Source: Escherichia coli
Lineage (GTDB): Bacteria > Pseudomonadota > Gammaproteobacteria > Enterobacterales > Enterobacteriaceae
DNA length: 64,000 nt
Reading direction: 5' to 3' (one strand)
Assembly: GCF_048403405.1 (NCBI RefSeq)
Contig: NZ_CP183129.1
The notes beneath the pieces were generated by a model, which worked only from the letters and a program-made list of their open reading frames with translations, made no database searches and had not been told where the DNA came from. This document shows positions 1,400 through 6,423 of the stretch, piece by piece; the first letter of the stretch is position 1, and each line of letters opens with the position of its first letter. The translations under genes were made by a program, and so were the position numbers.

Positions 1400-1611
1400 C
1401 ATCCCGGGATAAACATTGGCAGTTGAAGGTCCACGCGAACCATTTATCCGGCAAAATTCCACGCGTAATCCTGTGGTAATTTCTTCTGCATCTCGAAGAT
1501 TGAGAGCTGAAACGTGAAGCTGGGCATCGATACGCCATCGGATGGGAATATAAGACCTTTGCTGCTTTTGTAGTCAAAGTTTTTGACAATTCCTGTCATT
1601 TTAGGGGACAG
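1400..1611 (-). pseudogene. cspF/cspH-family cold-shock gene remnant (start codon lost, 1-bp deletion, stop lost)
   Basis: Minus-strand frame gives [22 protein letters not shown], then the next frame gives [42 protein letters not shown]; ancestral ATG position reads CTG; no stop after ANVY. Confidence 0.6.
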
Positions 1612-1909
1612 AAAAACTCCTTAATACTGATAACCTGGTGCACCATACACACGTTCCTGGAGAAAACTACTTTTTTGATAGGGTTGAAGGTGGCTGGATG
1701 TCTAAAATAAACATTGCTTCATATGTTCAACTATGAGTTAATGACTGCGTCGGTTTGAAGAACAGACGATATACGAAGTAGTTTACTAAAGCAGTTCTCA
1801 TTTCAGGTGTTATTCACTTATTCCTTCTTTGAGTCTCTCCAATTAAGTACGAAGTCGTTTCTGTTATGCAAACCATTTATGCCGAAAGGCTCAAGTTAAG
1901 GAATGTAGA

Positions 1910-2125
1910 ATGTCAAATAAAATGACTGGTTTAGTAAAATGGTTTAACGCTGATAAAGGTTTCGGCTTTATTTCTCCTGTTGATGGTAGTAAAGATGTGT
2001 TTGTGCATTTTTCTGCGATTCAGAATGATAATTATCGAACCTTATTTGAAGGTCAAAAGGTTACCTTCTCTATAGAGAGTGGTGCTAAAGGTCCTGCAGC
2101 AGCAAATGTCATCATTACTGATTAA
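1910..2125 (+). CDS. cspB: cold-shock protein, CspB-like
   Basis: 71 aa, [38 protein letters not shown]... with RNP motifs; long AT-rich 5-prime UTR; terminator downstream. Confidence 0.85.
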
Positions 2126-2405
2126 AATTCATCGCTCGTCTGTATACGATAACGAAGAAGGCTGATGCCTGAGTAGAGATACGGACAGAGTAGTGAATAT
2201 TGGATCTCTTTAATAAAAAGTAAGGAGGTCCAATACATGAAACAATGGCCAGCATATTTGGCAAAATCTTAATCAGGAAAAGTATGCTAACCATTGTGGT
2301 GAAGTGCAGGTTTGCTGCATGAATAGTTTCACAGCAGAAGCTAACTGCTGGCATCGCAAAACAAAGTGCGTAAGTGGATGACTCCCACAAAAAGCACCAC
2401 AATCT

Positions 2406-2429
2406 CAAACCCGCTCAGGCGGGTTTTTT
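2406..2429 (+). terminator. rho-independent terminator after cspB
   Basis: aaacccgctcaggcgggtttttt. Confidence 0.6.
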
Positions 2430-2488
2430 ATTATCTGCTTTAAATATATTATTAAAATATAAAAAATACTTGTTACTAATAAAATCAA

Positions 2489-2660
2489 TCAGGCTACAGC
2501 TTTAAGATTTGTCTGGAATACTTTGTTGCAATGAGGGCAGATCAAAAGGGCACCTTTTTGTACTCTTGAAAAACTGTGTTCTGACTCTTGGGTGCAGTTT
2601 GGGCAGGAACATTTAACGAGATAATTACGGCGTGATTTTGAGTCTTTACGTTCTGACATA
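2489..2660 (-). CDS. small zinc-ribbon protein (56 aa), probably the YnfU equivalent
   Basis: MSERKDSKSRRNYLVKCSCPNCTQESEHSFSRVQKGALLICPHCNKVF...; two CxxC pairs; AGGA about 8 nt upstream of the ATG. Confidence 0.5.
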
Positions 2661-2878
2661 GGCTTTTCCTGTATAAATGGCCGTATACAGTACACTAAAT
2701 ATGAAAACATTTCTCGTATTATTATTTTATATGTGACTTTCTTTCAAAATAATTACCCACATTTTTAATGTGTATGTTTTTTTAGCGCCGTTGAGAACAA
2801 CGTGTGCTGTCAAAACTACCCCGTAGACTCCGATCTTTTCAAACATATTGCACCATCCGTGTACATCGGGGTGAGGAT

Positions 2879-3094
2879 ATGAAATCAATGGATAAGTTAA
2901 CAACAGGTGTTGCCTATGGCACATCGGCGGGTAATGCTGGTTTCTGGGCATTGCAGTTACTCGATAAAGTAACTCCGTCACAGTGGGCTGCAATCGGTGT
3001 GCTGGGTAGCCTGGTTTTTGGCCTGCTGACGTATCTGACAAATCTTTATTTCAAGATTAAAGAAGACAGGCGTAAGGCTGCGAGAGGAGAGTAA
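2879..3094 (+). CDS. essQ: phage 21 S-type holin (pinholin) with dual-start motif
   Basis: 71 aa, [26 protein letters not shown]...[15 protein letters not shown], matches recalled S21; Met1 and Met4 give the holin/antiholin start pair. Confidence 0.85.
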
Positions 3095-3098
3095 TCCA

Positions 3099-3971: not shown

Positions 3972-4505
3972 ATGAACGTAAAAATCAGATACAGCCTGTC
4001 GGCCGCTGTTCTGGCACTGATTGCCGCCAGTGCTCCTGCCCCTGACATTCTCGATCAGTTTCTGGATGAAAAAGAGGGGAATCACACCACTGCATACCGC
4101 GATGGCTCCGGCATATGGACCATCTGTCGGGGAGCAACGATGGTGGACGGTAAACCTGTTATTCCGGGAATGAAACTGTCGAAGGAAAAATGCGCCCAGG
4201 TTAACGCCATTGAGCGGGATAAGGCGCTGGCATGGGTGGAGCGCAATATAAAAGTTCCACTGACCGAGCCACAGAAAGCCGGTATCGCGTCATTCTGTCC
4301 CTATAACATTGGCCCTGGTAAGTGTTTTCCGTCGACGTTTTATAAGCGGCTTAATGCCGGTGATCGTAAAGGCGCATGCGAGGCGATTCGCTGGTGGATA
4401 AAGGACGGTGGACGTGATTGCCGCATTCGTTCAAATAATTGTTACGGTCAGGTTATTCGGCGTGACCAGGAGAGTGCATTAACCTGCTGGGGGATAGAAC
4501 AGTGA
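3972..4505 (+). CDS. rrrQ: SAR-type endolysin (lysozyme)
   Basis: 177 aa; N-terminal Ala/Leu-rich signal-anchor segment; catalytic-region motif [20 protein letters not shown]; start overlaps context as in phage 21 R. Confidence 0.85.
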
Positions 4506-4999
4506 ATCAGATATTCACGGTGATTTTGCTCGTGTTGGTAGGATTTGTCGTAGGTAATGTCTGGAGCGACAGAGGATGGCAAAAAAAATGGGCGGAGCGT
4601 GATGCTGCCGAATTATCTCAAGAGGTAAATGTCCAATTTGCTGCTCGAATAATTGAACAGGGGCGAACTATATCCCGTGATGAGGCTGTTAAAGATGCAC
4701 AACAGAAAGCCGCTGAAATTTCTGCCAGGGCTGCTGATCTGTCTGATAGTGTTAACCAGCTGCGTGCCGAAGCAACAAAATATGCCATACGCCTTGACGC
4801 AGCGCAGCATACCGCAAATCTTGCCGCTGCCGTCAGAGGCAAAACAACCAAAGCCGCCGAAGGAATGCTCACCAACATGCTCGGAGATATTGCAGCAGAA
4901 GCTCAGCTTTATGCTGAAATTGCTGACAAACGCTACATCGCAGGAGTGACTTGTCAACGGATTTATGAATCTTTAAGAGATAAAAAATATCAGATGTAG
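4502..4999 (+). CDS. rzpQ: Rz i-spanin
   Basis: 165 aa, N-terminal TM segment then coiled-coil periplasmic domain; start overlaps the endolysin stop. Confidence 0.8.
4695..4949 (+). CDS. rzoQ: Rz1 o-spanin lipoprotein embedded in the +1 frame of Rz
   Basis: [23 protein letters not shown] signal peptide with lipobox LTSC, Pro-rich mature part; fully inside Rz; start codon choice uncertain (4680 or 4695). Confidence 0.6.
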
Positions 5000-5362
5000 A
5001 TTAATATTAAATCGGATTATTTTTAGCGCTGAATGTGAAATTTAAATAAAAAGGACTCTTCCATGAGTCAAAATCCTTGAAATCTTAAGGGTAAGATAAA
5101 AGGTCATTAGACAGAATGACACGTTTTATTAATAAATAAAGCTATTGTTTCATTCGTGTGTTTTTCTTTACAAAAGTAATCCTTGCTATGGTTGGTTAAT
5201 CATGCGTTAATGGTGTTCTGGTTTGTTACAAAATTATCTGAAGCAGTCATTGTTATAATTTTATTATTTGTACCTCTTGAGATTTCCTTGTTGGTTTTTC
5301 TCTCTGATATTTTTTTTCGGACCATTCTGCCCAAGGGCTAACTTCTTCAAAAGGTAATAATG

Positions 5363-5575
5363 ATGTCTAACAAAATGACTGGTTTAGTGAAATGGTTTAA
5401 CCCTGAAAAAGGTTTTGGTTTCATCACGCCGAAAGATGGTAGCAAAGATGTGTTTGTCCATTTCTCAGCTATTCAGAGCAACGATTTCAAAACGTTAACT
5501 GAGAATCAGGAAGTCGAATTTGGTATTGAGAACGGACCTAAAGGCCCCGCGGCTGTTCATGTTGTGGCACTTTGA
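5363..5575 (+). CDS. cspI: cold-shock protein, CspI-like
   Basis: 70 aa, [43 protein letters not shown]...; long AT-rich leader. Confidence 0.85.
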
Positions 5576-5775
5576 GGTAGATAATATTACAAACCATATT
5601 CACTTTAGATGCCCGTGTTGCCATGGTTCTCAGTATAGAACATCATCTTTTGATGTTTCTGACAGGAATCCTTTCGGGGCAAAATGTATCTTTTGTAAAT
5701 CAATGATGATTACATTTGATAATATTTCACAATACTTAAATGTTAGCCGTCTATCGTTAGATTTAAGAAAGTGAA

Positions 5776-5801
5776 AATGAAGGCTCCTTCGGGAGCTTTT
5801 T
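5776..5801 (+). terminator. rho-independent terminator downstream of cspI
   Basis: gaaggctccttcgggagcttttttt. Confidence 0.55.
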
Positions 5802-5846
5802 TTCTTAGTGTCTAGTCGATGGATACTCACATAATACGGTAACATT

Positions 5847-6077
5847 ATGAAAAAAATAATAGTTTTTTTTAACTCTGAACCAGCAATGGTAGTGCCAGTG
5901 ATGACCGGAGTTAACACCATCATGCGTGAATATCCAAATGGCGAAACAACACACCTCACTGTAATGGCTGCAGGGTTTCCATCTCTGACCGGAGATCATA
6001 AAATCATTTATGTAGCAGCGGATCGACATGTAACTTCAGAAGAAATTCTGGAAGCAGCAATGAGACTCTTGAATTGA
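5847..6077 (+). CDS. hypothetical small protein (76 aa) between cspI and gnsB
   Basis: ORF with upstream purine-rich stretch; occupies the ynfN position of K-12 Qin; identity not confirmed. Confidence 0.45.
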   Translation: MKKIIVFFNSEPAMVVPVMTGVNTIMREYPNGETTHLTVMAAGFPSLTGDHKIIYVAADRHVTSEEILEAAMRLLN

Positions 6078-6249
6078 TTTGATTCTAATGCATTGATAAT
6101 AAATGATAATCATCTTTATCTGTTTGTGTGAAATTTAGACCGTCGTATGTTGATTATTGCGATGTTTCATCTTATCTTTTATACGTTTGCTCCATATAAT
6201 TGACACTACTGTGTACCAGGAAAGTCATAACAGACTAAAAGAGGAAATG

Positions 6250-6423
6250 ATGAACATTGAAGAGTTAAAAACAAAAACAGAAGCAGATATTTCTGAATAT
6301 ATAACAAAAAAAATCATTGAGCTTAAGAAAAAGACCGGGAAAGAAGTTACCAGTATCCAGTTTACTGCACGGGAAAAAATGACTGGTCTTGAAAGCTATG
6401 ATATCAAGATTGATTTAATCTAG
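6250..6423 (+). CDS. gnsB: GnsA/GnsB-family small protein
   Basis: 57 aa, MNIEELKTKTEADISEYITKKIIELKKKTGKEVTSIQFTAREKMTGLESYDIKIDLI; close to recalled GnsB. Confidence 0.8.
   Translation: MNIEELKTKTEADISEYITKKIIELKKKTGKEVTSIQFTAREKMTGLESYDIKIDLI

Follow-up and report, generated by a model that had tools for sequence, protein, structure and literature searches.

Cold-shock and stress genes in the late-region cargo of a Qin-family lambdoid prophage of Escherichia coli

Results

A Qin-type late region with two islands of small genes

The DNA examined here, 64,000 nt of the Escherichia coli contig NZ_CP183129.1 (hereafter the window), contains the late half of a Qin-type lambdoid prophage inserted between rspB and ydfJ, and the segment in question, positions 1400-6423, belongs to its late region, from the antiterminator gene Q to cos. 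Reading from Q, the genes are a cspF pseudogene, cspB, ynfU, the lysis genes S, ydfR, R and Rz, and then cspI, ynfQ, a truncated ynfR, ynfN and gnsB, so arranged that one island of small genes lies before the lysis cassette and a second after it (Table 1). A preliminary description of this sequence had listed here a cluster of cold-shock and small stress genes, and the listed genes are indeed present at or near the positions it gave, as judged from the list of open reading frames (ORFs), tblastn with K-12 proteins and the annotation of near-identical genomes: its two zinc-ribbon mini-proteins are YnfU and the YmcF-like YnfQ, and its unassigned 76-aa ORF is full-length YnfN. In a megablast search 5419 of 5426 complete E. 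coli genomes matched window positions 1-8000, and the features annotated beneath the matches were ydfU, ydfT, cspF, cspB, ynfU, essQ, YdfR, rrrQ, rzpQ, cspI, ymcF/ynfQ, ynfN and gnsB, followed by DUF1441 and terminase.

Comparison with K-12 Qin by BLASTN gave four collinear blocks, 1-1409 (98%), 1410-3304 (97%), 3962-6558 (91%) and 30673-38095 (98%). The last of these holds pinQ, ydfK, ynfT, ydfJ, ydfI, ydfZ, rspR and ydfG; the window thus includes the late half of a prophage that occupies the same site as Qin in K-12. The gene order from ydfT to gnsB agrees with that of K-12, as does the placement of ydfK and ynfT near the attachment site, and the cargo proteins are 92-100% identical; the correspondence with the K-12 Qin cargo proposed in the preliminary description therefore stands, with minor differences, and ydfK lies at the far end as it had said, with ynfT beside it. 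The right junction between prophage and chromosome, mapped from the K-12 Qin boundary through the BLASTN block, falls at about 32817, where the prophage adjoins ydfJ as in K-12 and beyond which the sequence is ordinary chromosome. The left junction is outside the window, which begins within ydfU and thus excludes the early half of the prophage; in the relative KK19-02, the closest whole-prophage match among complete genomes (98.7%), the integrase gene abuts rspB. The early region of KK19-02 carries integrase, excisionase, exonuclease, dicB, repressor and replication genes together with a dCTP-deaminase defence gene; this annotated anti-phage deaminase adjoins hokD (16560-18197 of the extracted locus).

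Leaders, terminators and conservation of the cargo genes

CspB and CspI both have the signature of the CspA family, with RNP1 (KGFGFI), RNP2 (VFVHF) and matches to PF00313 (E 1e-31 and 1.6e-31, respectively). Each gene is preceded by a match to the cspA thermoregulator family RF01766 (1749-2141, 158.8 bits, and 5205-5621, 112.8 bits, with a gathering threshold of 78; Rfam), and the positions of the -35 and -10 elements imply 5' untranslated regions (UTRs) of ~160 nt for cspB and ~145 nt for cspI, in agreement with the lengths published for the two genes. YnfU and YnfQ give full-length profile matches (E 2.5e-31 and 6.3e-33), and paired CxxC motifs are present in their translations, from which a zinc ribbon is predicted. 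Terminator-like hairpins lie at 1364-1341 on the minus strand (cspF), 2407-2426 (cspB unit), 5779-5800 (cspI-ynfQ) and 6484-6505 (gnsB), and such sites are enriched in the region (12, compared with 5.3 ± 2.0 in shuffled sequences). The base composition also sets the islands apart, as GC content drops to 0.33-0.40 at 1600-2800 and 0.30-0.39 at 4800-6800, whereas Q, the lysis genes and terminase range from 0.45 to 0.59.

The idea that each cargo gene has its own leader or terminator is thus borne out for the csp leaders and the four bounding terminators and applies to some genes only: cspI and ynfQ, separated by a 10-nt gap, form one unit with a common terminator. The annotated start codon of ynfQ (5586-5588), like that of its paralogue ymcF, is ATT, an unusual start located 10 nt past the stop codon of cspI (or cspG). 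The frame of the ynfR remnant overlies the terminator hairpin of this unit.

YnfN deserves comment because its annotation differs between strains. The 76-aa form is annotated by RefSeq and is also found in phage 2H10; homologues with as little as 51% identity, all within the Enterobacteriaceae, to which the family is restricted, retain an invariant N-terminus, MKKVIVFFNS, and in an AlphaFold2 model (predicted local distance difference test score, pLDDT, 88) this segment forms the first strand of the sheet. In K-12 (10955-11185 of the extracted locus) the ATG has been lost and the frame is still open. Taken together, the invariant N-terminus, the modelled strand and the open frame make it likely that the 51-aa K-12 annotation is truncated at its N-terminus.

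Relative to K-12, cspI shows nine synonymous and no non-synonymous differences, and the ratios of non-synonymous to synonymous change (pN/pS) are 0.15 for ynfQ, 0.26 for ynfN and 0.20 for gnsB, with values of 0.10-0.41 for the lysis genes; the counts are small, although they point the same way, towards purifying selection on the cargo. These values bear on the suggestion that the cluster no longer serves any function and is hitch-hiker DNA in decay. Such decay would account for the cspF pseudogene, the deletion of ynfS and the nonsense codon in ynfR in this copy, as well as for the frameshift in J described below, which gives the impression of a prophage decaying as a whole. However, it would leave unexplained the complete conservation of the CspB and CspI proteins, the exclusively synonymous changes in cspI, the low pN/pS of its small neighbours, the presence of the module at a coverage of at least 80% in 1585 of 5426 complete E. 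coli genomes (~29%), and the published phenotypes of cspB and cspI mutants, which are impaired in competition during long-term stationary phase (PMC7406224). We therefore regard the hitch-hiker explanation as highly improbable.

Table 1. Positions and supporting evidence for the features discussed, in window coordinates (aa, amino acid; nt, nucleotide).
Feature	Position	Strand	Evidence and remarks
ydfT/quuQ, late antiterminator Q	482..1234	+	98% aa identity to K-12 YdfT; annotated antitermination protein; upstream edge of island 1
GC-rich palindromic hairpin, T-runs on both strands	1341..1364	.	Terminator scan (minus strand); closes cspF
cspF pseudogene ("csp remnant" of the preliminary description)	1409..1611	-	tblastn splits into two frames
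cspB leader, cspA-thermoregulator type, cold-box-like start	1749..1909	+	RF01766; -35 TTGCTT and -10 GTTAAT just upstream (read from sequence)
cspB, cold-shock protein	1910..2125	+	Identical to K-12 at nt and aa level; PF00313 E 1e-31
Conserved non-coding region 3' of cspB	2126..2432	+	Kink-turn-like hairpin 2133-2193, further hairpins, terminator 2407-2426
ynfU, 56-aa predicted zinc-ribbon protein	2489..2659	-	PF23499 E 2.5e-31; NF038384 79.8 bits; 98% to K-12
essQ, class II holin	2879..3094	+	PF04971 E 4e-34; 100% identity to K-12
Long YdfR/DUF1327, 183 aa	3099..3650	+	PF07041 E 4e-43; phrog_2091 183/183; equal length in phage 2H10
86-aa ORF	3598..3858	-	phrog_2572 86/86; annotated hypothetical protein
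rrrQ, lysozyme	3972..4505	+	93% aa identity to K-12
rzpQ, spanin	4502..4999	+	90% aa identity to K-12
rzoQ, embedded in rzpQ	4695-4949	+	95% aa identity to K-12
cspI leader, cspA-thermoregulator type	5205..5362	+	RF01766; -35 TTGCTA and -10 GTTAAT at ~5184-5212 (read from sequence)
cspI, cold-shock protein	5363..5575	+	100% aa identity to K-12
ynfQ, 62-aa YmcF-like CxxC protein	5586..5774	+	PF23641 E 6e-33; 94% to K-12
ynfR remnant, cut to 12 codons by a nonsense mutation in the 13th	5777..5815	+	tblastn; "too short" in RefSeq; not in the preliminary description
ynfN, full-length, 76 aa	5847..6077	+	Annotated ynfN; phrog_3425 76/76
gnsB	6250..6423	+	PF08178 E 2e-33, 54/54; matches solved GnsA structures 4xo1/4xo2 (4xo2 E 8e-20)
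Terminator closing island 2	6484..6505	+	Terminator scan
ybcW-like 68-aa gene, between gnsB and cos	6717..6923	+	phrog_657 68/68; YbcW in Tritos annotation; nothing in NCBIfam or Pfam; not in the preliminary description
Terminase small and large subunits	7486..10121	+	100% and 99.9% aa identity to Tritos TerS and TerL; start of the morphogenesis module
gpJ tail-tip gene, frameshifted	22456..25835	+	1-bp deletion near 25461-25497; tblastn splits into two frames
ydfK, cold-shock-induced small protein	31789..32022	-	100% aa identity to K-12; phrog_2718; next to pinQ (30882-31472)
ynfT, 37-aa small protein	32091..32204	-	100% aa identity to K-12
ydfJ	32808..34091	+	99.8% aa identity to K-12 YdfJ (tblastn)

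Cargo slots and the probable expression of their genes

The reading that we favor, at a probability of roughly 0.85, is that the region, the part of the late operon from Q to cos, belongs to a Qin-family lambdoid prophage in which cold-shock and stress genes occupy the standard cargo slots. The first slot, from Q to the holin gene, would hold the dead cspF, cspB with its long structured 3' region, and ynfU; the second, from Rz to cos, would hold the cspI-ynfQ(-ynfR) unit, ynfN, gnsB and the ybcW-like gene; and a third, between the Pin invertase gene and the attachment site, would hold ydfK and ynfT. That both positions flanking the lysis genes are exchangeable, which is a defining property of morons, follows from the sister phage mEp460, where the slot between Q and S contains two hypothetical genes and a DNA methyltransferase gene and the slot between Rz and cos contains two small ORFs and no csp genes. 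The cargo of the window is thus replaced at the same sites in mEp460, and its base composition is distinct from that of its surroundings.

How such genes might work can be pieced together from what is known of the cspA, cspB and cspI genes, together with the transcriptomes published for K-12 and Tritos. Under prophage repression the cargo would be transcribed from its own sigma-70 promoters, and upon a downshift in temperature the cspB and cspI mRNAs would be stabilised and better translated through a structural switch in their 5' UTRs, with ynfQ and ynfR carried on the cspI transcript. The products, which include RNA chaperones, small zinc-binding proteins and a modulator of lipid composition of the GnsA/B type, could then aid the lysogen in the cold and in long-term stationary phase. 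In the lytic cycle the units should in addition be transcribed by Q-modified polymerase reading through from upstream, because most of them are co-oriented with the late operon. Published work is consistent with this outline. Tritos, which is prophage 3 of LF82, a strain of adherent-invasive E. coli (AIEC), produced a plaque on MG1655; in RNA-seq of a Tritos lysogen, CspI, CspB and YnfN were expressed 93-fold, 59-fold and 27-fold above the prophage background and were listed as morons (PMC9928086). Induction by a temperature downshift is known for cspB and cspI of K-12. In the same strain, YnfR rises after cold shock (PMC6001520), long-term stationary phase induces cspB, cspF, cspI, ydfK and ynfN together (PMC7406224), and cspI, ynfQ and ynfN have been found to be co-induced (PMC11228462).

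Several results weigh against this reading. A scan for promoter consensus sequences showed no enrichment in the region (12 versus 15.4 ± 3.9), so that separate promoters for ynfU, ynfN, gnsB and ydfK depend on reading the sequence by eye; nor did the scan pick up pR', and read-through from a late promoter is a presumption. Not all cargo genes have been maintained in this copy, as cspF, ynfR and ynfS are damaged or lost. Some of the products match little that is characterized: YnfN has no Pfam or NCBIfam family, no sequence match in the PDB below E 0.2 and no fold match there, the YdfK protein has no PDB sequence match below E 0.2, and the 86-aa ORF of the lysis cassette has no Pfam, NCBIfam or PADLOC match and no PDB sequence match below E 0.2. 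Finally, the evidence for expression comes from K-12 and Tritos, which are strains other than this one.

The csp genes could instead serve the phage itself, as RNA chaperones and antiterminators, made from within the late operon, that sustain late transcription and translation when the prophage is induced at low temperature. Proteins of the CspA family are known transcription antiterminators (PMC11228462), most units sit inside the late operon in its orientation, and the layout around the lysis genes has been kept where Rz and TerL have diverged to 61-70% identity. Yet the cargo has its own leaders and terminators, it is strongly expressed in the uninduced Tritos lysogen (PMC9928086), and it has been kept in defective prophages such as K-12 Qin and the remnant in Citrobacter sp. 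On2M; moreover, an equivalent block is found in a plain chromosomal context in Citrobacter, and the sister phage mEp460 does without it. A role in the phage cycle therefore seems unlikely to us as the main explanation.

Another possibility is that the small genes make up a module for addiction or defence, in which GnsB would be a toxin and the cold-shock domain (CSD) proteins would be defence components. RefSeq names gnsB a "GnsA/GnsB family addiction module toxin", a label that PF08178 also bears, and CspB and CspI match the PADLOC profile CSD_V (E 1e-15). The profile match, however, is to the generic cold-shock domain only, and with no further PADLOC component among the ten cargo proteins it does not indicate a defence system. 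The proposed partner of GnsA, YmcE, has no counterpart in the window, ymcE and ynfN being unrelated, and the csp leaders are of the cold-shock-gene type. We consider this explanation very unlikely, and retain the reading of the region as cargo slots filled with stress-adaptation genes.

The cspF pseudogene, a candidate tR' and the lysis cassette

The alignment shows that cspF has suffered three lesions: a change of its start codon from TTG to CTG, a frameshift due to a 1-bp deletion, and a 258-bp deletion that removed the stop codon together with ynfS. The palindromic hairpin that closes cspF (1341-1364), with T-runs on both strands, is in addition a candidate for tR' of the late transcript, as we infer from its sequence. 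Within the lysis cassette, a 657-bp segment (3305-3961) has no counterpart in K-12 or Tritos and is present in 2H10 and PhiR63_1; it lengthens YdfR to 183 aa and encodes the 86-aa ORF on the reverse strand.

The morphogenesis module and the tail-tip frameshift

Where K-12 has a deletion, the window contains 24 kb of morphogenesis genes (6559-30672), a stretch that aligns at 95-98% with the structural modules of other phages, among them Tritos, mEp460 and cdtI. The cos site lies near 7290, and the Tritos record begins where its match to the window starts. Twenty-three of 24 Tritos late proteins are present at full length in a single frame, with identities of 94-100% apart from the side tail fibre (74%). 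The tail-tip protein J switches frame after about residue 1006-1014 in tblastn; the identical 601-bp allele of J is found in three other genomes, in one of which it is annotated as "frameshifted", and the common intact allele is 1 bp longer. This frameshift implies that the present copy of the prophage is probably not infectious. The preliminary description had spoken of an apparently near-complete phage, which is apt as regards the 24 kb of head and tail genes and must be qualified by the broken J and by the position of the early half outside the window.

The match to K-12 TfaQ in window 30346-31472 is limited to the last 36 residues of the protein (30674-30781) and adjoins the Pin invertase gene; this may be an invertible tail-fibre segment in an orientation or allele unlike that of K-12. 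In the chromosomal part of the window there is a full-length Rfam match to the Hfq-binding small RNA (sRNA) STnc560 (41674-41887, 281.9 bits).

A conserved non-coding region, possibly a structured RNA, downstream of cspB

Between the stop codon of cspB and its terminator lie ~300 nt that alignments show to be kept across a divergent phage clade and in Yokenella, Kluyvera and Pluralibacter, and the indels between copies rule out a coding function. At its start is a hairpin (2133-2193) with the invariant core A-C-GA(A/U)-GA-N-GG ... CC-U-GA-G-U, which resembles box C (ACGAUGA) and box D (CUGA) and has the sequence signature of a kink-turn (k-turn). Following the published definition of the motif (PMC5435971), we find a canonical stem, a 3-nt bulge (GAA or GAU), tandem G.A/A.G pairs and a non-canonical stem. 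The outer stem is wholly different between lineages and still paired, and the flanking stems covary. By this signature the hairpin looks like a kink-turn, of which the kinked geometry and protein binding are predictions.

A structure of 41 base pairs, evaluated on 15 distinct sequences, has 93% of its positions paired, compared with 35-48% when the partners are slid, and contains 15 pairs with compensatory changes, a number reached in none of 500 shuffles, although this comparison is somewhat favourable to the model as the structure was derived from the same alignment. Of 31 distinct matches to the pattern, 25 place the motif 24-42 nt downstream of a cspB-like stop codon. A covariance model of the hairpin finds a single copy in the window (69.7 bits) and a single copy in K-12 Qin, and also matches sites 3' of csp genes in six other genera. 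Conservation of the element through compensatory change extends to phage contigs and to Yokenella, Kluyvera, Pluralibacter, Enterobacter, Raoultella, Citrobacter and Klebsiella, and in several chromosomes the element is located between csp and a ymcF-like gene. What precedes the element is always a cspB-type gene or, in Klebsiella, a cspA-like leader: three Klebsiella species have a cspA-like promoter and leader joined straight to the hairpin, with no csp coding sequence between them; at these loci (L099, L101 and L104) the hairpin lies around 6400-6650 of the extracted sequence and a ymcF-like gene ~350 nt downstream.

An Rfam search of window 1-8000 at E ≤ 1 returned just the two cspA matches and sub-threshold terminator hairpins, with no family for the cspB 3' region, and a literature search revealed no link between cspB or ynfU and k-turns. 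Two possible coding sequences were discarded: an 11-codon leader peptide (MKQWPAYLAKS, 2238-2273) with a strong Shine-Dalgarno sequence, which is present in K-12 and 2H10 and is not conserved in the divergent clade, and a 97-aa antisense ORF (2115-2408), whose homologues have indels that are not multiples of three. Our tentative proposal, to which we would give somewhat less than even odds, is that 2126-2432 is an undescribed structured RNA, either a cold-shock-linked 3' UTR element or an sRNA, and that the two islands derive from a single ancestral locus, csp-(k-turn RNA)-ymcF-ynfN-gns, whose halves now lie on either side of the lysis cassette.

Distribution and assembly of the cargo

All 80 IMG/VR loci that encode a relative of YnfQ have the order Q, (ynfS), cspF, cspB, ynfU, S, ydfR, (86-aa ORF), R, Rz, cspI, ynfQ, ynfN, gnsB, (ydfO/ybcW/ynfO), terminase. 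As this order is shared by a divergent IMG/VR clade in which YnfQ is 73-76%, Rz 61-66% and TerL 66-70% identical and nothing matches the holin of the window, the cargo must predate the split of these phage lineages. In species-representative genomes the YmcF/YnfQ family occurs at 79 loci in many Enterobacteriaceae, with a csp gene ending ~10 nt upstream in about 30, and a recognisable lambdoid late region is found at just two of them (Trabulsiella and Yokenella). Several Citrobacter species have a csp-ymcF-ynfN-gnsB block, which in Citrobacter sp. MGH106 is flanked by ordinary chromosomal genes. From this chromosomal counterpart it appears that island 2 (cspI-ynfQ-ynfN-gnsB) is one block and does not consist of separate acquisitions. 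In Citrobacter sp. On2M (5072-7870 of locus L106), cspB, ynfU, cspI, ymcF, ynfN and gnsB are contiguous, without lysis genes, and adjoin, between phoPQ and purB-hflD, a 182-aa integrase-like fragment, which suggests an element that has decayed and has retained the cargo alone.

The chromosome of Escherichia itself contains a locus, cspH-cspG-ymcF-ymcE-gnsA (K-12 1,050,9xx-1,052,2xx), that is collinear with both islands at 73-75% nucleotide identity. In this pairing (window 1408-2024, 5363-5722 and 6232-6410), cspH corresponds to cspF, the 5' half of cspG to cspB, the 3' half of cspG with ymcF to cspI with ynfQ, and gnsA to gnsB. The chromosomal locus differs in that no lysis genes separate its parts, ymcE takes the place of ynfN, and both ynfU and the cspB 3' RNA are absent. 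cspG is thus a mosaic: its promoter, leader and first ~100 nt resemble cspB, and its 3' part resembles cspI. This is what one would see if recombination between cspB and cspI had removed the lysis cassette or if, in the opposite direction, the cassette had been inserted. A phage may have captured the chromosomal genes, or the chromosomal copies may be prophage relics.

Discussion

The Qin cargo is already known from the annotation of K-12, from isolated phages and from the published morons of Tritos, and the finding that it is present here is an ordinary one that in itself adds little. The use foreseen for the locus, as a reference point for dating the acquisition of the cargo, is already served by isolated phages with equal cargo and by the work on Tritos (PMC9928086). 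What the analysis does provide is the picture of a prophage module under apparent purifying selection within a decaying phage, consistent with domestication of cold and stationary-phase functions, and a few corrections: the K-12 annotation of ynfN is likely truncated, J is broken in this copy, and island 2 seems to be a single block that also occurs at chromosomal loci of other genera. The conserved region 3' of cspB, a putative RNA with a kink-turn, is a by-product that may have more potential than the cargo itself.

Among known elements, K-12 Qin shares with the prophage described here the rspB/ydfJ site, the gene order and 91-100% nucleotide identity in the common blocks. It has ydfO and ynfO, which the window lacks, and a nohA-stfQ-tfaQ remnant in place of the 24-kb head and tail module; for its part, the window differs in its dead cspF, missing ynfS, truncated ynfR, 76-aa ynfN and additional 657-bp segment. 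In a phage collection, PhiR63_1 and 2H10 cover 1400-6423 completely at 98% identity, followed by HannyBb, Tritos and PhiR42_1 at 87% coverage. In phage 2H10 (NC_049950, Glaedevirus) the stretch that immediately precedes cos holds cspF, cspB, the holin gene, the 183-aa YdfR, lysin, Rz, cspI, the 76-aa YnfN and gnsB, and near the attachment site are pin and ydfK; these are combined with a different, lambda-like head and terminase module and a different integrase. Tritos (OV696610), with 95% nucleotide identity in the cargo and 97.8% in the structural module, amounts to a Qin in intact form and carries dicB, dicF, hokD, ydfU, Q, the cargo and matching structural genes; it possesses an additional ydfO-like gene and is without the 657-bp segment. 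J is intact in Tritos, 2H10, PhiR63_1 and HannyBb, in contrast to the frameshifted gene of the window. The sister phage mEp460 agrees with the window in Q, holin, YdfR, lysozyme, Rz and the head and tail backbone. Its namesake mEp460_ev081 matches 1454-5024 at 96% and, being by name an evolved derivative of mEp460, may in our view have acquired the module through recombination, perhaps with a Qin prophage resident in the host.

The classical morons of lambdoid phages are the bor and lom genes of lambda and the stx genes that occupy the Q-S interval of Stx phages. The cargo of the window has in common with these its positions, between Q and S and between Rz and cos, and its organization as AT-rich, apparently autonomous units exchangeable between sister phages. 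The payload is different: classical lambdoid morons encode virulence or surface proteins, whereas the cargo described here consists of stress-adaptation genes with an mRNA thermosensor.

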